Shown piece by piece: positions 32,702 to 43,785 of a stretch of 64,000 nucleotides of DNA (its first letter is position 1; each line of letters opens with the position of its first letter). Under the pieces are notes generated by a model. It saw nothing but the letters and a program-made list of their open reading frames with translations, searched no databases and was not told the origin of the DNA. The stretch is from Betaproteobacteria bacterium (GTDB lineage: Bacteria; Acidobacteriota; Vicinamibacteria; Vicinamibacterales; CAVVIG01): contig JBLMXQ010000018.1 of the NCBI GenBank assembly GCA_050257855.1, positions 5,486 through 69,485 of the forward strand. Direction: 5' to 3'. Both the position numbers and the translations under genes were made by a program.

Positions 32702-32977
32702 TCATCCCAGCCGCAGCTTCTTTTGCAGGTAGGCGGTCACGTTCGCGATCGAATCGAGATTGTCGGGCACGAGCTCGTGATTCTCGATCTTTATGTGAAA
32801 CGTCTGCTCCAGGAACGCGATGAGCTCGAGGACGCCCATCGAGTCCACGATCCCCGACTCGAGCAGCGAGTCGCCGCGGGCGATCGGCGTGGACTCGTCC
32901 CCGAACAGGAAGTTACTGACGATGAAGTTCCGGACCGTCGTCTCGGTGGTGTCCATATCCGTCGTCGTCCGAAGCAT
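32702..32977 (-). CDS. Stand-alone acyl/aminoacyl carrier protein
   Basis: SLLESGIVDSMGVLELIAFLEQTF (DS phosphopantetheine site); PDNLDSI; alternative start 32956. Confidence 0.92.
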   Translation of the reverse strand: MLRTTTDMDTTETTVRNFIVSNFLFGDESTPIARGDSLLESGIVDSMGVLELIAFLEQTFHIKIENHELVPDNLDSIANVTAYLQKKLRLG

Positions 32978-34556
32978 GACCCTCTCCAGCGTGAGCCATC
33001 GACCGCGCGCACGCCTTCAGTGTGACCTTGTCGATCTTGCCGGCTGCGTGCGACGGCAGTTCGCGCAGGAACTCTATCTTCACCGGCACCTTGTGCGGGG
33101 GCAGCTTTGCCGCGCAGTATGCCCGGATTGCCTGCTCGCCGACGCCGGCGGGGCCGTCGCGCATCGTCACGAACGCCACCGGAACCTCGCCCAGCAGTTC
33201 GTGCGGGGCGCCGACGACCGCCGCCTGATGAATCGCCGGGTGCTGGCAGAGCACGTCTTCGATCTCCCGGACGCCGATGCGGTGCGCGCCGACCTTCAGG
33301 ATGTCCTGTCGTCTGCCGACCAGGAACAGGTAGCCTTCCTCGTCCGCGTATCCGAGGTCGCCTGTCCGATAACCGCCCTGCCCGAACGCGCGGCGCGTCT
33401 CGTCGGGGTGGCCCCAATAGCCGGGCGAGATGTTCTCTCCGCGTGCGACCAGCTCGCCGACCTCGCCCGGCCGCGCGGGCCGACCGTCCTCCGTGACCAC
33501 GTCGACGCCGACGCCGTGGATCGGCCGGCCGATCGACCCGATCTTGCGCGGCAGATCGCCAGGCGGCAGACAGGTGATTCGCGCCGAAGCCTCGGTGGCG
33601 CCGTACATGACGTGGAACGGCACCGGCGGGCCCTCCGCCAGCCACGCGCAAATATGCGATGGCGGCATGGCGCCGCCCGCCTGGGTGACGTACCTCAGAT
33701 CGGGAAAGGTCATCGTCTTCAGATCGGACCGATGCAGGAGGATCGCGAACGTGGACGGCACTCCCGCGAATCCGGTGACGTGGCGTTCACGCATCGCCTG
33801 AAGGACGACGTTCGGATACGCGAAGCGATTGTCGAGCACGACGGAGCCGCCGACCATCACGTGCGTGTGCAGCAGCGAGAGGCCGTAAACGTAGTACAGC
33901 GGCAGCACGCACATGACCCGATCCGAAGCGGTGAGACCGAGACACGCGACGATCGACCGCGTGTTCGCGACGATGTTCCGGTGGGTCAGCATCACGCCGC
34001 GGGCGCTCCCGGTGCTGCCCGACGTGTAGACGACGGCCGCGAGCGAGTCGTCGGCGATGTCGATGGTTGGCGGCGGCGTCGCAGGCGCGGCCGCGAGCGC
34101 CGCCTCAACCGTCTCCGACGGCGTGTACCCGCCGCCGGACTCGACCCTGCCGTTCGCCGACGTCGAGACCAGCCAGCGGACGTTCGCGGCGTCGGAGTCC
34201 GGCGCGACAGCTCTCAGCGTCGCACGGTCGGTAATGCCCAGCGACGGTGCGCAGTCGACGATCGCCGCCGCGAGCCGATCGTTCCGGGGACCAGCCGGCA
34301 GGGGAACGGCGACGGCGCCCGCCCGCATCACGCCGAAATACGCGGCAACGAAATCGATCGAGTTCTCGAGCGCGAGCACCACGCGATCGCGCGGTTGGAC
34401 GCCGTGTCGAAGGCACGCGTGCGCGTAGCGGCCGCTCAGCCTCGTGAGCTGGTCGTACGTGGCGAGGCCCTTGGTCGTGAGGAGGGCGGGAGCCTCCGGA
34501 GTGTCCCGCGCCGACCGTTCGAGCAGCTGATGGACCAGCATCGCGTCAGCGCTCAC
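32913..34556 (-). CDS. Class I adenylate-forming (AMP-binding) ligase
   Basis: YTSGSTGSARG P-loop, YGATEAS, YRTGDLG, GRRQDILKVG, GKIDK; GTGA overlap with asnB; C-terminal tail overlaps the ACP gene. Confidence 0.92.
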   Translation of the reverse strand: MSADAMLVHQLLERSARDTPEAPALLTTKGLATYDQLTRLSGRYAHACLRHGVQPRDRVVLALENSIDFVAAYFGVMRAGAVAVPLPAGPRNDRLAAAIVDCAPSLGITDRATLRAVAPDSDAANVRWLVSTSANGRVESGGGYTPSETVEAALAAAPATPPPTIDIADDSLAAVVYTSGSTGSARGVMLTHRNIVANTRSIVACLGLTASDRVMCVLPLYYVYGLSLLHTHVMVGGSVVLDNRFAYPNVVLQAMRERHVTGFAGVPSTFAILLHRSDLKTMTFPDLRYVTQAGGAMPPSHICAWLAEGPPVPFHVMYGATEASARITCLPPGDLPRKIGSIGRPIHGVGVDVVTEDGRPARPGEVGELVARGENISPGYWGHPDETRRAFGQGGYRTGDLGYADEEGYLFLVGRRQDILKVGAHRIGVREIEDVLCQHPAIHQAAVVGAPHELLGEVPVAFVTMRDGPAGVGEQAIRAYCAAKLPPHKVPVKIEFLRELPSHAAGKIDKVTLKACARSMAHAGEGHASDDDGYGHHRDDGPELHRQ

Positions 34557-36568
34557 GATTTGACGTCCGCGAGTTGACTCAACTGGTCCACGCGTCGCGT
34601 GTACGGCAGCGCCGGCGGCGTCGCGGGACGCTGCCGGATGTACTGGTCGTAGAGGAGCTGGGTCGACAGCAGCCCGACCAACCCCATGTTGTCCGCGTTC
34701 GAGAACTGAGTGGACGGCGTGGCCGCCAGGCACTTCTCGATCAGACGGCGACCCGCGGCCGCATCGAACACGCCGGCTTCGCCGAGGCTCCGGAGGTCCG
34801 CGACGTGCTCGATCCATTCGCGCGCTTCCGGCTGGACCAGCGCTAGCGCGTCAGGCGCTCGATAAGGCTGCTTCTTCCGTTCGCGGATGAGAGATGGAAC
34901 GAGTCCGGACGAAGCACGCTTCAACACGTGCTTTTCGTCGAGCACCCGCAGCTTCGCCGCCGCCGGCAGCGAATCGGCGAGCCGCGCCACGTTGCGATCG
35001 AGGAATGGGAACCGCCCCTCGATCGAATGAGCCATCAGCATCCGGTCGCCCTGCGACGCGAGAAGGTATCCGGACAGGAGCGTGCGGATCTCGAGGTACT
35101 GGTCCTGTGCCAGGTATGTCCACCGCGAGAATGCACCCGGGAGATCGCCGAGCAGATCGGCGACGACGTCAGCGCCCGACAGCCTGCTGGACAGGTCCCT
35201 GCTGAAGAGTCTTTTGAGCGAGCCCGTGGAGCGCCACCGCAGGTCGTGGCCGAAGCCGGGTCGTGCCCAGGCGTCCAGGCGCTGGCCGAAGAACTGACGG
35301 CTGATCGCCCCGTTTCCAGCGGGAGAACGACCGAGATACGGGTACAAGCGCTGAAGGAGCGCGGGTCGGCGCACTGACGCTGGCTCGCGCGCCCAGAACC
35401 GGCGGACCTTCGCTTCGCGGAACAGGTCGTAGCCCCCGAACAGCTCGTCCGCGCCTTCCCCGGTCAGGACGACCTTGATTCCGGCCTTCTGCACGTGGCG
35501 CGACAGCAGGAACAGGGGCGCCGGCGCCGTCCGCAGCACGGGCCGCTCCGTGTGTGCGATGACCTCGGGAAATACGCGCGCGATGTCGCTCTTCGACACC
35601 CGCACCTCGCGGTGATCGCTGCCGAGGTACCTGGCCATGGCGCGCTGGTACGGTGTTTCGTCGTAATCGGCGTCATCGAACCCCAGCGAGAACGTGCAGA
35701 ATCGTCTGCCTCTCGCGCGAAGGGCGAGCGCCGCAATCAACGAGCTGTCGAGTCCGCCCGAGAGATAGCTGCCCACGGGCACGTCGGAGCGCAGCATGCG
35801 CAGCCGTGTCGCCTCGGCGAGGGCGGCCCTTACCGCGACGACGGCATCGTCCATGGATCCTGCGAATGCGCCGTCCGTTCCCTCCGGAAAGTCCGGCCGG
35901 CAGCACGAGGTCTCGGCGACGCGGCCGTTCGAGTAGGTGCGCACGCACCCGGGCTCGACCTCCTCGATTCCTTCGAACACCGTCCGCGGCGCGATGGTTG
36001 TCCAGAAGGTGAACGTCTGGTCGAGGCCGACGGGATCGAACCGGCGGGGAAGCTCGGGGTCGCCGACGAGAATCGCCCTGATCTCGCTGGCGAAGTAGAG
36101 CCGGCCGCCTCGCCGCGCGACGTACAGCGGCCGCACGCCGAATGGATCTCTCGCCAGGACGAGGGTGCGGCGCGACGCGTCCCAGAGCGCCGCCGACCAC
36201 TGGCCGTTGAACCTGGAGAACGCGGCCTCGCGCCACTGCTCGTACGCGTGCACGATGACTTCGGTGTCGCTGTGCGATCTGAAGCGGTGGCCCGCCTCTT
36301 CGAGCTCGCGGCGCAGCTCCACGTAGTTGAAGATTTCGCCGTTGAACACAATCCACAACGTGCCGTCTTCGTTTGACAGCGGCTGCTGGCCCCTCTCGAG
36401 ATCGATGATGGCCAGGCGCGCGTGGCTCAGGCCGGCGGCCGCGTCGCGATACACGCCGGACCCGTCGGGACCGCGATGCCGTAGCGACGCAGCCATCCGA
36501 TCGAGAGCCTCGATGTCGGGCGGCGGCCCAGACGATCCGAGGTTGACGATCCCTGCGATACCGCACAT
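34553..36568 (-). CDS. asnB: Asparagine synthase (glutamine-hydrolysing)-like amidotransferase
   Basis: MCGIAG (Ntn Cys), HRGPD, FNGEIFNY, SGGLDSS, TGEGADELFGGY, EGRFPFLD. Confidence 0.95.
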   Translation of the reverse strand: MCGIAGIVNLGSSGPPPDIEALDRMAASLRHRGPDGSGVYRDAAAGLSHARLAIIDLERGQQPLSNEDGTLWIVFNGEIFNYVELRRELEEAGHRFRSHSDTEVIVHAYEQWREAAFSRFNGQWSAALWDASRRTLVLARDPFGVRPLYVARRGGRLYFASEIRAILVGDPELPRRFDPVGLDQTFTFWTTIAPRTVFEGIEEVEPGCVRTYSNGRVAETSCCRPDFPEGTDGAFAGSMDDAVVAVRAALAEATRLRMLRSDVPVGSYLSGGLDSSLIAALALRARGRRFCTFSLGFDDADYDETPYQRAMARYLGSDHREVRVSKSDIARVFPEVIAHTERPVLRTAPAPLFLLSRHVQKAGIKVVLTGEGADELFGGYDLFREAKVRRFWAREPASVRRPALLQRLYPYLGRSPAGNGAISRQFFGQRLDAWARPGFGHDLRWRSTGSLKRLFSRDLSSRLSGADVVADLLGDLPGAFSRWTYLAQDQYLEIRTLLSGYLLASQGDRMLMAHSIEGRFPFLDRNVARLADSLPAAAKLRVLDEKHVLKRASSGLVPSLIRERKKQPYRAPDALALVQPEAREWIEHVADLRSLGEAGVFDAAAGRRLIEKCLAATPSTQFSNADNMGLVGLLSTQLLYDQYIRQRPATPPALPYTRRVDQLSQLADVKS

Positions 36569-37566
36569 CAGCCGTCGACCTCTGCGACCGGTTCGACGAG
36601 CAGCGGACGGACATGAAGGTAACGCGTGGCCCGGCGCTTCTGATCGATATCGCGATACACGCGTTCGACCTGCACTTCCGTGAGCCCGGCGGCACCAGCG
36701 ACATCAGCCGCCGGGACGCGATGGTTGCGGCCGTACAGACACAGGTCCATCTGTTCATAGGGCAGGGCGAAGAAGAACTCCTCCTGTGTCTGCGGCAGAG
36801 AGAACGTGTCGGTGGTCGGCCGCCGTTCCCGGATTTCGTCCGGCACTCCGAGGTACCCGGCAAGTGCATATACCTGGGTCTTGAACAGGTGCGCGATCGG
36901 CTTCAGATCGGCAGCGCCGTCTCCCTGCTTGACGAAGAATCCCTGGTCGTACTCCAGGCGGTTGGGCGTTCCGGCGACCGCGTAGTTCAGACGGTCGGAG
37001 TGGTAGTACTCCAGGAGCTTCCGGACGCGCTGCTTGAAATTCGTGGCGGCGACCAGTTGGAGATAGGCGGCTGCTGGCAGTCGACAGGTGCTCAGCTCGC
37101 CTGAGGGCGCCTCGATCGTGAGCTCGGACACGTTGAGGCGATCGCGATCGAGGATCGACGGCAGGGTGATCTTGCACCGGTACCCGTCGCCGTAGTCCGG
37201 AAACACCTCACGGATGGCTTCGGCCTGACGCGTGTAGCAGCCGGCGGCGGCCAGGAGCGGCTCGACGTCTTCCACGATCGTCGGCAGGCCGAACTGCGAC
37301 GTGAGAAGCCGTCCAAGGCGAAGGGCGTCGGCTGAGGAGTCGCGCTCCGGCATGAGCAGGACGAGGACGCGTTCGCCGCCGAGCGCGCGTGCGCACAGGC
37401 AGGTCACGACTGAGCTGTCGATGCCGCCAGAGAGGCCGATCACGACGCCGCGCCGGTGGAGCACCGTCAGCACCTGGTGGCGAATGGCCTCCTGGATCTG
37501 CGCGGCGGTGCGCGCGGCATCGATGGCGAGGACATCACGCGAAAACGCCGTCATCGGTGTCTCCAC
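36568..37566 (-). CDS. nadE: NH3-dependent NAD+ synthetase-like paralog
   Basis: VIGLSGGIDSSV PP-loop, GTPNRLEY, GFFVKQGDG, PIAHLFKTQV; no glutaminase domain; TGATG overlap with asnB. Confidence 0.85.
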   Translation of the reverse strand: METPMTAFSRDVLAIDAARTAAQIQEAIRHQVLTVLHRRGVVIGLSGGIDSSVVTCLCARALGGERVLVLLMPERDSSADALRLGRLLTSQFGLPTIVEDVEPLLAAAGCYTRQAEAIREVFPDYGDGYRCKITLPSILDRDRLNVSELTIEAPSGELSTCRLPAAAYLQLVAATNFKQRVRKLLEYYHSDRLNYAVAGTPNRLEYDQGFFVKQGDGAADLKPIAHLFKTQVYALAGYLGVPDEIRERRPTTDTFSLPQTQEEFFFALPYEQMDLCLYGRNHRVPAADVAGAAGLTEVQVERVYRDIDQKRRATRYLHVRPLLVEPVAEVDG

Positions 37567-37573
37567 GGGTGCC

Positions 37574-38095
37574 TCACATCGAGGCGTTGCGGGATTCGGC
37601 GCCGGCGCCCGACCGCGTCAGCCTGAGGCCTCGCACGAACTCCTCGTACGGATGCTCGGCGGTGAGCGGCACGGATGCGACACCCAGCGCCCCGGCCGCG
37701 GGAGCGCCCCAGACCGTGTGCGCCGGCACGTTGCGGCTCACGACCGTGCCCGCCCGGATGACGGCGCCTTCGCCGATTCGCACGTTCGGCAGGATGATGC
37801 AGTGCGGTCCGACGAACACGTCGTTCTCGATGACGACGTCGCCCTTGCTCGTCGGCCTCCGGGGTCCCCAGTAGAAATGCGTGATGATCGAGCTGCGCAA
37901 TCCGATCGTGCAGTTGTCCCCGATCCTGACGTGTTCCGGGTGCAGCTCGTCGATGTAGACCAGCTGGGCAATCCACACGTTCCGGCCGATCTGAACGCCC
38001 CGACGCCGGTGCAGCCACGGCCGGACGGTCGCGCCGCCCGGCATCACGAACGCGAGCTTGTGGAGGAGTCTTCTGACCGCGTCGGCAGCGTTCAT
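37574..38095 (-). CDS. Left-handed beta-helix (hexapeptide) acyltransferase
   Basis: GVQIGRNVWI, VRIGDNCTIG, VVIENDVFVGPHCIILPNVRIGEGAVI, WGAPA. Confidence 0.9.
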   Translation of the reverse strand: MNAADAVRRLLHKLAFVMPGGATVRPWLHRRRGVQIGRNVWIAQLVYIDELHPEHVRIGDNCTIGLRSSIITHFYWGPRRPTSKGDVVIENDVFVGPHCIILPNVRIGEGAVIRAGTVVSRNVPAHTVWGAPAAGALGVASVPLTAEHPYEEFVRGLRLTRSGAGAESRNASM

Positions 38096-38109: not shown

Positions 38110-38125
38110 AGCAACTCACGAGCCA
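38110..38125 (-). promoter_or_regulatory. Sigma54 -24/-12 promoter
   Basis: TGGCTCG-TGAG-TTGCT vs consensus TGGCACG-N4-TTGCW (1 mismatch). Confidence 0.72.
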
Positions 38126-39393: not shown

Positions 39394-41217
39394 ATGAACA
39401 CACGTCGGCAATTCCTGCTCACCGCTCCCCTGGGAATGCTCGGGGCGGCAGCCGCCTGCCGGCGCGGACAGCCGCCGGCGCAGCAGTCGGCCGCCGGCAG
39501 TGCTGCGCCGCCGACACCGGGCGCGCCGCCCGCCTTCGCGACGGCGCCCGCGTCAGGCCCCGAGGTCTCGCCGGCCACGTTCGCCGAAGCAGAAAAACTC
39601 GTGCAGGTGACGTTGAGCGCCGGCGAGCGCGACGAGGCGGCCGGGAGCTGGCGGCGGGCGATGGCGCCACTGCTCGAGCGGCGCACCGGACCGCGGAAGG
39701 TCGCCCTCGCCCCCGACGTCGCCCCCGCCACCCGCTGGAACCCGGTCGGCATTCTCCCCGGGGGCACGGCCGGGCCGACACGCGACGCGTTCGTACGCAC
39801 CGGGGACGATGCGGTGCCGCTGCCTTCGAGCGACGCCGACATCGCCTTTTCTCCCGTGACGCGGCTGTCGCGCTGGATCGAGAAGAGACAGCTCACCTCC
39901 GAGCGGCTCACGAACATCTACCTCCAGCGGATCGAGCAGTTCGATCGGCAGCTTCGGTGCATCATCACGCTCACGAAGGAATCTGCGGTCGCGCAGGCGA
40001 GGAAAGCCGACGCGGAGATCGCGGCGGGACGCTACCGCGGGCCGCTGCACGGGATTCCATTCGGTGTGAAGGACCTGCTCGACACCGCGGGCATCCCGAC
40101 CACGTATGGCGCCGAGCCGTTCAGGAATCGCGTGCCGGCCGCCGATTCCGCCGTCGTGCACCGTTTGTACGAGGCCGGGGCCGTGCTCGTCGCCAAACTG
40201 AGTCTGGGGGCGCTGGCGCTCAACGACATCTGGTTCGGCGGGCAGACGATGAATCCGTGGCTGCTCGAGGAAGGTGCGTCGGGATCGAGCGCGGGGCCGG
40301 GCGCCGCGACCGCGGCCGGGCTGGTCGCCTTCTCGGTCGGCAGCGAAACCGGCGGCAGCATCGTCGCGCCCTCGATGCGATGCGGCGTCACAGGCCTCCG
40401 GCCGACCTTCGGGCGCGTCGCGCGCACCGGCGCGATGACGCTCTGCTGGTCGCTCGACAAGCTCGGGCCGATGACGCGGAGCGTCGAGGACGCGATGCTG
40501 GTCCTGCAGGCGATCGCCGGGCCCGACCCGGGCGACGTGTCGAGCGTGCCGAGCCATCTCGAGTTCGACGCGACGGCGCCGGTGACCGGCCTCCGCGTCG
40601 GGTACTTCCCGGCGTGGATGAACACGCCCCCGGCGACCGACGTCGACCGAGCGGCCCTCGCGACCGTCACGAAACTGGGAATGGCGGCCACGGAGGTGAG
40701 CCTGCCCGACTGGCCGTACGATTCGCTGCAGCACGTGCTCTTCAGCGAAGCGGCGGCCTCGTTCGAGGATCTCACGCTGTCGGGCGGCCTCGGGGAACTG
40801 AGAGCGCAGGTCCCCGATGCGTGGCCGAACCTGTTCCGGCAGGCGCGCTTTCTGTCAGCGGTGGACTTCGTGCAGGCCGATCGTCTGCGGCGCCGCGTGG
40901 CGAACGAGATGGCGCGCGTGTTCTCCGAGGTGGACCTGCTCCTCGTGCCGTCGCTCCGCGACGAGATGCTCACGCTGTCGAATTTCACGGGCCATCCGTC
41001 GCTCACGCTGCGCGCAGGCTTCGTCCACGTTTCGGAGGCGCGGAGCGACTGGGCGCCCGACCCGAAACATCCGCTCCCGAAGTTCTCGCCGCCCCGGCGC
41101 GTGCCCCACGGCGTGACGCTGCTCGGCCGACTCTTCGAGGAGGGGACCGTCGCGCGCGCCGGACTCGCGCTCGAACGGGCGTTCGGCGTGGCCGGAGAAC
41201 GCCCGCCGGGGTTCTAG
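39394..41217 (+). CDS. Tat-exported amidase-signature family enzyme
   Basis: TRRQFL Tat motif; GVKDL, GSSAG, GSETGGSI (Lys-cisSer-Ser triad). Confidence 0.92.
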   Translation: MNTRRQFLLTAPLGMLGAAAACRRGQPPAQQSAAGSAAPPTPGAPPAFATAPASGPEVSPATFAEAEKLVQVTLSAGERDEAAGSWRRAMAPLLERRTGPRKVALAPDVAPATRWNPVGILPGGTAGPTRDAFVRTGDDAVPLPSSDADIAFSPVTRLSRWIEKRQLTSERLTNIYLQRIEQFDRQLRCIITLTKESAVAQARKADAEIAAGRYRGPLHGIPFGVKDLLDTAGIPTTYGAEPFRNRVPAADSAVVHRLYEAGAVLVAKLSLGALALNDIWFGGQTMNPWLLEEGASGSSAGPGAATAAGLVAFSVGSETGGSIVAPSMRCGVTGLRPTFGRVARTGAMTLCWSLDKLGPMTRSVEDAMLVLQAIAGPDPGDVSSVPSHLEFDATAPVTGLRVGYFPAWMNTPPATDVDRAALATVTKLGMAATEVSLPDWPYDSLQHVLFSEAAASFEDLTLSGGLGELRAQVPDAWPNLFRQARFLSAVDFVQADRLRRRVANEMARVFSEVDLLLVPSLRDEMLTLSNFTGHPSLTLRAGFVHVSEARSDWAPDPKHPLPKFSPPRRVPHGVTLLGRLFEEGTVARAGLALERAFGVAGERPPGF

Positions 41218-42993: not shown

Positions 42994-43785
42994 CTACCAG
43001 CCGGACTTGCAGCGTCTCGCGAGAAGGCCGGTGGCTTCTGCGATATCGATGTCCGCGACGAGCAGCCCTCGCTTGCCGTACGGCTGGTACGCGAGGAGCG
43101 TCCCGTCGGGCCGCACCACGGCCGATGTCGTCGGCGACCCCGCGCTCGCGCAGTTCACCGTGGCGAAGAAGCAGGTGTTCTCGGCCGCCCGGCACAGAGC
43201 CGCTTTCTCGTGGAACGAGTTTGCGGGATCAGCGAAACTCGAGGGCCGGTACCCGCCCGGCTCGGCCTCGTGGAAATGAGGGTGGAACACGATGTGTGCG
43301 CCGCGGCGGGCCGCCCAGCGGACCGTTTCCGGATAACGCCAGCCCTCATGGCAGATGGCTATGCCGAACGTCACCGGGCCCGCCTGGAACACGCGCCGTC
43401 CGGCGCCGGGCGAATACGTGCCATCCTCGGAGGGGTCGAGCTGGACCTTGTCCTGGAAGCCGGCGATCGTTCCGTCCCGGTTGATGACCAGCGCCGAGAT
43501 CATCAACGTGTCGTCGACGAGGCGTTCGGTCCCGAGAACGACCGCGAGATTGCCTTTCGCAGCAGCGCCGGCGACGGCGGACCAGGCGCGGTCGAGGAAT
43601 GCCGAATCCGGACGCGGCACCTGCTTCCCCATGCCTCGGTAGCCGGGAACGAAGCATTCCGGAAAGCAGATCAGGTCGGCACCTTCGGCGGACGCCTGCG
43701 CGATGGCCTGTTCGGCCAGCGCGACCGACTCCGCGGGGGTCGCCGGAAACTGGAGGTTCGCGAGCGCGATTCGAAATGCGTTCAT
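42994..43785 (-). CDS. Carbon-nitrogen hydrolase (nitrilase superfamily)
   Basis: CFPECF (Glu), QDKVQL (Lys), GIAICHE (Cys). Confidence 0.92.
   Translation of the reverse strand: MNAFRIALANLQFPATPAESVALAEQAIAQASAEGADLICFPECFVPGYRGMGKQVPRPDSAFLDRAWSAVAGAAAKGNLAVVLGTERLVDDTLMISALVINRDGTIAGFQDKVQLDPSEDGTYSPGAGRRVFQAGPVTFGIAICHEGWRYPETVRWAARRGAHIVFHPHFHEAEPGGYRPSSFADPANSFHEKAALCRAAENTCFFATVNCASAGSPTTSAVVRPDGTLLAYQPYGKRGLLVADIDIAEATGLLARRCKSGW

Follow-up and report, generated by a model that had tools for sequence, protein, structure and literature searches.

The closest described counterpart of the operon analysed here lies on the pSymB replicon of Sinorhizobium meliloti. In 2009, Ramos-Vega et al. 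reportedly described this operon as asnB-smb20651(ACP)-smb20650(ligase)-nadE1, where ACP stands for acyl carrier protein, an order that matches the one seen in pSymB (AsnB-ACP-Lig-NadE), and in E. coli the ligase SMb20650 is said to have charged the carrier with long-chain fatty acids. The subject of the present analysis is a set of five minus-strand genes at positions 32702-38095 of a 64,000-nt stretch of an Acidobacteriota genome (contig JBLMXQ010000018.1, positions 5,486 to 69,485 of the forward strand, assembly GCA_050257855.1; the whole stretch is called the window below), which encode a hexapeptide-repeat (LbH) acyltransferase, a NadE-like PP-loop ATP pyrophosphatase, an AsnB-like glutamine amidotransferase, an adenylate-forming ligase, and a free-standing carrier protein. 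The window operon is a new member of a module family known since 2009, the chemistry of which is unsolved, rather than a system of a new kind. The evidence assembled here, which centers on an unusual NadE paralogue and on the linkage of four of the five genes across phyla, is best explained by a biosynthetic operon that is accessory and has spread horizontally.

PMC7232532 and PMC5686131 both cite the 2009 study (Microbiology 155:257). In S. meliloti, smb20650 shares a transcript with the gene for the ACP SMb20651; when expressed in E. coli that makes holo-SMb20651, it gives rise to acylated SMb20651, and it is unable to substitute for FadD (PMC7232532), while the function of SMb20651 "needs further investigation" (PMC5686131). 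A previous sequence-only reading of the window had proposed a ligase paired with a free carrier, a logic that is borne out and is experimental for the orthologous S. meliloti pair (PMC7232532). The same reading had mentioned similar gene sets with no defined product; the operon type had already been described in 2009. Both operons hold the same four protein families and have no adjacent glycan genes, whereas the window operon differs from that of pSymB in its gene order (NadE-AsnB-Lig-ACP), in a ligase of the other clade, and in the addition of the LbH acyltransferase and a sigma-54-type promoter candidate. The NadE-like proteins of the two operons share 58% identity (412 bits), and the AsnB-like and carrier proteins match at 598 and 70 bits, respectively. 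A tblastn search of plasmids with the NadE-like protein returned 116 replicons, with 76 from Sinorhizobium, 12 from Azospirillum, and others from Ensifer, Shinella, and Mesorhizobium. It was this search that revealed the link to S. meliloti; under generic gene names, the module was not found in the literature.

Other known systems resemble the operon in part. In DltA/DltC, an adenylating enzyme likewise loads a small free-standing carrier, and DltC is among the solved relatives of the window carrier; however, the window ligase lacks the amino-binding Asp, no gene for a membrane-bound O-acyltransferase (DltB) or for DltD is adjacent, and the window adds two amidating enzymes. Among the best named NCBIfam relatives are two families of XrtA/PEP-CTERM systems, the ligase TIGR03098 (339 bits) and the amidotransferase TIGR03108 (393 bits), but the window proteins score far under the respective cut-offs of 592 and 817 bits. 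A PEP-CTERM/exosortase system was ruled out by these scores and by the genome of origin, which is 99.99% complete and in which no exosortase (PF09721) was found.

Relatives of the module were sought with a pattern scan of one genome per species, which found them in at least 591 species genomes, and 80 loci were kept for counts. These loci come from Acidobacteriota, Myxococcota (Sorangium), Nitrosomonadales, Mesorhizobium and other Hyphomicrobiales, Nitrospirota, Planctomycetota, Gemmatimonadota, Bacteroidota/Ignavibacteria, Chlorobi, Spirochaetes, Elusimicrobia, and Actinomycetota. In 55 of the 80 loci, drawn from more than 10 phyla, no more than 8 kb holds the genes for the NadE-like, AsnB-like, ligase, and carrier proteins, and many of the others lie on truncated contigs; 63 loci keep the NadE-like gene with AsnB. 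The four genes are found in at least 10 orders, the commonest being NadE-AsnB-Lig-ACP (18 loci) and AsnB-ACP-Lig-NadE (12 loci), and linkage that survives such shuffling across phyla is strong evidence that the genes belong to one pathway. Linkage was likewise seen in the 13 loci of a scan of the phylum, with the ligase, the carrier, or both as the most constant partners. Only 5 of the 80 loci and 2 of the 13 include the LbH gene; in others, a CelD-type GNAT or a different hexapeptide protein serves as the accessory transferase. The earlier view of five genes as a unit thus stood for four of them: judged by synteny, the conserved unit is the four-gene set, with LbH as an accessory in a few Acidobacteriota.

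The NadE-like protein matches NF002048 (PRK00876), a family named "NAD(+) synthase", with 506 bits against a cut-off of 313 over positions 5-327 of 330, and the next NadE model reaches 161 bits. The family name is homology-based only. The genome of origin encodes, on other contigs, a glutamine-type NadE (553-aa frame) and an NH3-type NadE (256 aa), so the operon copy is not the only nadE. The window protein has pairwise identities of 27% and 31% to these two canonical genes and of 57-76% to orthologues in other phyla. Members of NF002048 are present in 13 of 201 genomes sampled from the phylum and absent from the other 188, with none in sampled genomes of the same order or family, and a canonical contiguous PF02540 match is also present in all 12 other genomes that carry the family. 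Because the protein is a third paralogue from a patchy subfamily, and the genomes that carry this subfamily always have a canonical NadE, the comparisons support its placement as an extra diverged paralogue that is almost certainly not the NAD synthetase of the cell, as the sequence-only reading had suspected. An exact-sequence look-up of the protein returned no record. Among 14 model organisms, NF002048 is found in Methanosarcina acetivorans alone, for which a preprint mentions an operon (MA1027-MA1029) that encodes an ACP together with a long-chain acyl-CoA ligase.

An AlphaFold2 model of the NadE-like protein, made with 64 orthologues, has a mean predicted local distance difference test score of 93.7 and a NadE fold. 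The top Foldseek matches are all NadE enzymes, with those of P. horikoshii, H. pylori, and F. tularensis the best (TM-score 0.83-0.87 over the target, 20-25% identity). At positions 106-174, where canonical enzymes have about 16 residues, a conserved insertion of about 70 residues is modelled as a helix plus a three-stranded sheet. The protein has in common with NH3-dependent NadE (P. horikoshii 2e18, H. pylori 1xng, and B. subtilis 1nsy) the PP-loop SGGxDS, the motif GT.N..E...G.F.K.GDG..D, and the overall fold. It differs in being only 17-25% identical, in carrying the insertion after the first third of the domain, and in its P2-loop motif (PTTDTFSLPQTQEEFFF), and proteins of NF002048 are always an extra paralogue, linked to carrier, ligase, and AsnB genes.

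Unusual arrangements of the NadE-like gene were also seen. In another Acidobacteriota genome (locus L118, 8049-11099, minus strand), a 1016-aa protein bears the NadE-like domain, including the insertion, at its C-terminus, after about 690 N-terminal residues without a Pfam match, and its gene lies near genes for alginate export and an ABC-2 transporter. Two divergently transcribed NadE-like paralogues stand back to back in locus L029 (9959-14201), followed by a carrier and a ligase but with no AsnB, and this gene content suggests that duplication of the NadE-like gene can replace AsnB. In locus L120 (9001-13108), a NadE-like gene whose product is 74% identical to that of the window has no module partners and adjoins genes for adenosine 5′-phosphosulfate kinase, CysN/CysD-type sulfate activation, a GHMP kinase, and a sugar nucleotidyltransferase.

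The AsnB-like protein scores 509 bits with TIGR01536, for which the cut-off is 267, and its glutaminase and synthetase domains are intact. Its nearest solved structure is a hydroxyamidotransferase of trichostatin synthesis (7ylz, 201 bits), with E. coli AsnB at 162 bits. The aspartate-site motif of the E. coli and human enzymes, ETYD(V/I)TT(I/V)RAS, is replaced by HTERPVLRTAPAP in the window protein (HTERPVLRT--APAP as aligned to 1ct9 and 6gq3), and the replacement motif HTERP(I/V)LRTAPAPLFLLSR is conserved in 53 AsnB proteins of the module. Since the motif is replaced, and the replacement is conserved throughout the AsnB family of the module, free aspartate is an unlikely substrate. Tailoring amidotransferases, such as TsnB9 (7ylz), the malonamate-forming OxyD, and AsnO of N-acetylglutaminylglutamine amide (NAGGN) synthesis (TIGR03104), likewise have both domains intact and amidate carboxylates that are not those of free aspartate; of solved structures, 7ylz matches best, and TIGR03104 gives 357 bits with the window protein. 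However, the window protein falls under the cut-offs of all named subfamilies, and no Ngg, polyketide synthase (PKS), or trichostatin gene is its partner. AsnB proteins above the cut-off are missing from 5 of 31 genomes of the order, and AsnB is therefore dispensable in the lineage, in which asparagine is presumably made another way. The suggestion that AsnB feeds NH3 to the NadE-like enzyme found nothing in its favor: the two genes lie at opposite ends of AsnB-ACP-Lig-NadE operons, AsnB is missing from some loci, and AsnB has a complete synthetase domain of its own.

The ligase, which has the motifs YTSGSTGSARG, YRTGDLG, and GKIDK, scores below the cut-offs of every named NCBIfam ligase. It has A3, A7, and A8 motifs like those of nonribosomal peptide synthetases (NRPS), with Val or Gly in place of the alpha-amino-binding Asp (FD(x)S of both LgrA A domains). 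Its top solved relative is LgrA, followed by oxalate-, malonate-, and o-succinylbenzoate-CoA ligases and FadD13. These residues and relatives fit a non-amino acid substrate, possibly a dicarboxylic or fatty acid. An amino-acid-loading ligase of the DltA or NRPS type was ruled out by the missing amino-binding Asp, despite LgrA being the top solved match. Two clades of ligase fill this slot of the module, with both present in some loci; the window ligase belongs to clade A, which occupies the slot in at least 10 loci. The module is expanded in the locus of the closest genome relative (L038, 5250-13613), where the NadE-like gene is accompanied by AsnB, a further AsnB paralogue (32% identical), a carrier, and one ligase from each clade (A and B).

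The nearest solved relatives of the carrier are type II peptidyl or D-alanyl carriers, for example PigG and DltC. Its best NCBIfam match is the OlsHI ACP model, at 58 bits against a cut-off of 130, and a link to the ornithine-lipid proteins OlsH/OlsI, which are unrelated GH3-like and alpha/beta-hydrolase proteins, was rejected. The NCBIfam matches of the LbH protein are all under their cut-offs, the best being sugar or polyprenyl O-acetyltransferases, and homologues with 53-68% identity lie beside the module in three other Acidobacteriota loci.

Polysaccharide loci often host the gene set in other genomes, in keeping with the mention in the sequence-only reading of similar sets near exopolysaccharide loci. 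Recurrent neighbors in the 80 loci are genes for methyltransferases (18), polyprenyl-phosphate sugar transferases (Bac_transf, 13), AMP-binding/thioesterase proteins (11), family 4 glycosyltransferases (GT4, 10), hexapeptide transferases (10), ABC exporters (10), GDSL-like proteins (9), and short-chain dehydrogenases/reductases (8). The closest relatives of the window NadE-like protein are found in glycan-type loci with family 2 glycosyltransferases (GT2), CelD-GNAT, VanZ-TPR, a low-molecular-weight phosphatase, and two carbamoyltransferases.

The general logic favored here, which is considered fairly probable, has the carrier take up an acid, which the AsnB-like and NadE-like enzymes then amidate and LbH finally hands over to a surface glycan or lipid; far less confidence attaches to any specific substrate. 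The ligase would adenylate a carboxylic acid without an alpha-amino group and thioesterify it to the phosphopantetheine of the carrier, a step shown for the S. meliloti pair and presumed for the window. By the chemistry of their families, the AsnB-like enzyme, with glutamine, and the NadE-like enzyme, probably with free ammonia or another amine, would each adenylate a carboxylate of the intermediate and convert it to an amide, so that amidation would be double. The co-transcribed LbH enzyme would then transfer the completed acyl group, and the acceptor is most likely a sugar in a glycolipid or surface polysaccharide whose synthesis is encoded elsewhere in the genome. A more specific proposal, put forward tentatively and at slightly less than an even chance, is that the NF002048 "NAD(+) synthases" are distinct PP-loop amidoligases that use a dedicated carrier, acting on a phosphopantetheine-tethered acid or loading it, and that they cooperate with a non-asparagine AsnB to make an undescribed amide, diamide, amidine, or nitrile acyl substituent.

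Several observations weigh against the carrier-based amidation logic. Close relatives of the window NadE-like protein often have NadE-AsnB-ligase without an adjacent ACP; together with locus L120, where the NadE-like gene stands alone, these relatives indicate that the NadE-like enzyme may not need a carrier. Locus L120 also hints that the enzyme is able to work carrier-free on a sugar-linked substrate. The window ligase and SMb20650 are in different clades, with the S. meliloti and Mesorhizobium ligases, at about 290 bits, in the score class of clade B. The AsnB-like protein is the sole full-length AsnB homologue in this genome, and a second role in asparagine supply is therefore possible. 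Finally, the module has no glycan neighbors in the window, in Sorangium, where fab and pyr genes adjoin it, or on S. meliloti pSymB, where minCD adjoins it, which makes a lipid or small molecule equally possible as the final destination of the acyl group.

This last point underlies the reading in which the module product is an amide-bearing lipid or a small diffusible molecule, for example a fatty acid derivative whose carboxylate(s) are converted to primary amides, with LbH acting on the product. The reported loading of long-chain fatty acids would agree with such a product, but it was seen in a heterologous host, and the native acid may differ. Acylation of the carrier by SMb20650 (PMC7232532) and the position of the module away from glycan genes in the three settings above speak for a lipid or small molecule; many loci, however, embed the module in polysaccharide clusters, and the core includes no thioesterase or exporter, so that a product of this kind is considered unlikely, if far from negligible. 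The two ATP-pyrophosphatase amidating enzymes might instead act in sequence on one carbon of a carrier-bound acyl group, with AsnB making an amide and the NadE-like enzyme adenylating the amide oxygen to give a nitrile, as in QueC, or an amidine, as in PseA/WbpG. Chemistry of the nitrile and amidine type has precedent in other PP-loop enzymes, and sequential action would explain why the two enzymes are so often kept together (63 loci) and would agree with the remodelling of the NadE-like subfamily beside its active site by the insertion. It is nevertheless improbable given that the core NadE motifs are largely those of ammonia-dependent NadE and that the NadE-like gene is present without AsnB in some loci.

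The possibility that housekeeping genes are adjacent by chance, with nadE serving NAD, asnB serving asparagine, a fatty-acid ligase, and a spare ACP, draws on annotation and on conservation of the enzymes themselves: the Prokaryotic Genome Annotation Pipeline (PGAP) labels orthologues nadE and asnB (the Mesorhizobium copy is named nadE, asnB, AMP-binding protein, and acyl carrier protein), no second full-length AsnB is present in the genome, and the NadE fold and PP-loop are intact. Against it stand the two canonical NadE genes, the absence of the subfamily from 188 phylum genomes, the linkage of four genes across phyla despite shuffled order, the missing aspartate-site motif, and the dispensability of AsnB in the lineage. 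Chance adjacency is accordingly very improbable, and a housekeeping NadE or AsnB was ruled out by the extra canonical NadE genes, the patchy subfamily, and the lost aspartate-site motif.

The five open reading frames (ORFs) of the window operon, established by ORF calls and profile searches, run head to tail (Table 1). The coupled genes, motifs, and junctions given in the sequence-only reading are all present, and a fourth junction, between ligase and carrier, had been left undescribed. Read from the sequence, a 7-nt gap separates the LbH gene from the GTG of the NadE-like gene, a TGATG overlap joins the NadE-like and AsnB-like genes, and a GTGA overlap joins the AsnB-like and ligase genes. 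The ligase frame extends 65 nt beyond the carrier ATG at 32977 (32913-32977), which has GGAGAGGG just before it, or 44 nt beyond an ATG at 32956. In the nearest relative (L038), the ligase ends 4 nt ahead of the carrier gene. Because the ligase tail that overlaps the carrier is not conserved, comparison of the sequences suggests that an ancestral ligase stop codon was lost.

Table 1. Features of the operon and its upstream region, in window coordinates.
Feature	Position	Strand	Evidence and remarks
LbH (hexapeptide-repeat) acyltransferase, 173 aa	37574..38095	-	Hexapep 57 bits; accessory to core module
NadE-like PP-loop ATP pyrophosphatase, 332 aa (328 aa from ATG at 37554)	36568..37566	-	SGGIDSS; PF02540 159 bits; NF002048 506 bits
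AsnB-like glutamine amidotransferase, 671 aa	34553..36568	-	MCGIAG (N-terminal nucleophile (Ntn) Cys2), SGGLDSS; GATase_6/7, Asn_synthase 298 bits; TIGR01536 509 bits
ANL adenylate-forming ligase, 547 aa, candidate acyl-carrier-protein synthetase (clade A)	32913..34556	-	AMP-binding 261 bits, AMP-binding_C 73 bits
Free-standing carrier protein, 91 aa	32702..32977	-	Serine site GIVDSMG; PP-binding 23 bits
Sigma-54-type promoter candidate TGGCTCG-N4-TTGCT	38110..38125	-	15 nt upstream of LbH ATG

The promoter candidate is the sole match in the window to the sigma-54 consensus TGGCACG-N4-TTGCW at no more than one mismatch, with about 0.41 matches expected window-wide, and genes for sigma-54 activators lie 8-9 kb from the module in close relatives. 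The candidate sigma-54 promoter probably drives the operon. The LbH start at 38095 is backed by three homologues, conserved from RLLHKLAFV onward, and the transcript would therefore be nearly leaderless if the promoter is in use.

Window genes within about 5 kb on both sides of the operon are unrelated to it and encode VWA, amidase, CN-hydrolase, PAS/GAF, zinc-dependent alcohol dehydrogenase, PDZ-protease, and glyoxalase proteins. No PKS, condensation, glycosyltransferase, or exporter genes were found within this distance, which agrees with what had been noted earlier of the adjacent genes. The amidase-signature enzyme (607 aa, 39394-41217, plus strand) and the CN-hydrolase (263 aa, 42994-43785, minus strand) are encoded 1.3-5 kb upstream of the operon; their nearness may be a coincidence, or they may serve turnover of, or ammonia supply for, the same product. 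PADLOC models of anti-phage defence gave zero matches for the five proteins at E <= 0.001, and a defence-system reading was dropped for this reason.

The module is among the more widespread operons of unsolved chemistry, with hosts that include soil Acidobacteriota, myxobacteria, nitrifiers, planctomycetes, and legume symbionts. Annotation pipelines name its enzymes nadE and asnB, after NAD and asparagine biosynthesis, and thereby inflate metabolic reconstructions in hundreds of species. If NF002048 proteins are indeed carrier-linked amidoligases, every genome that holds the pathway is mis-annotated, across at least some 590 species of more than 10 phyla and the megaplasmids of rhizobia. S. 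meliloti is a host open to genetic work, and priming and loading of the ACP, which make up half of the biochemistry, have already been done in it. Solving the module would reveal a class of substrates that is new for NadE-type enzymes, and probably also a novel modification of surface glycans or lipids.

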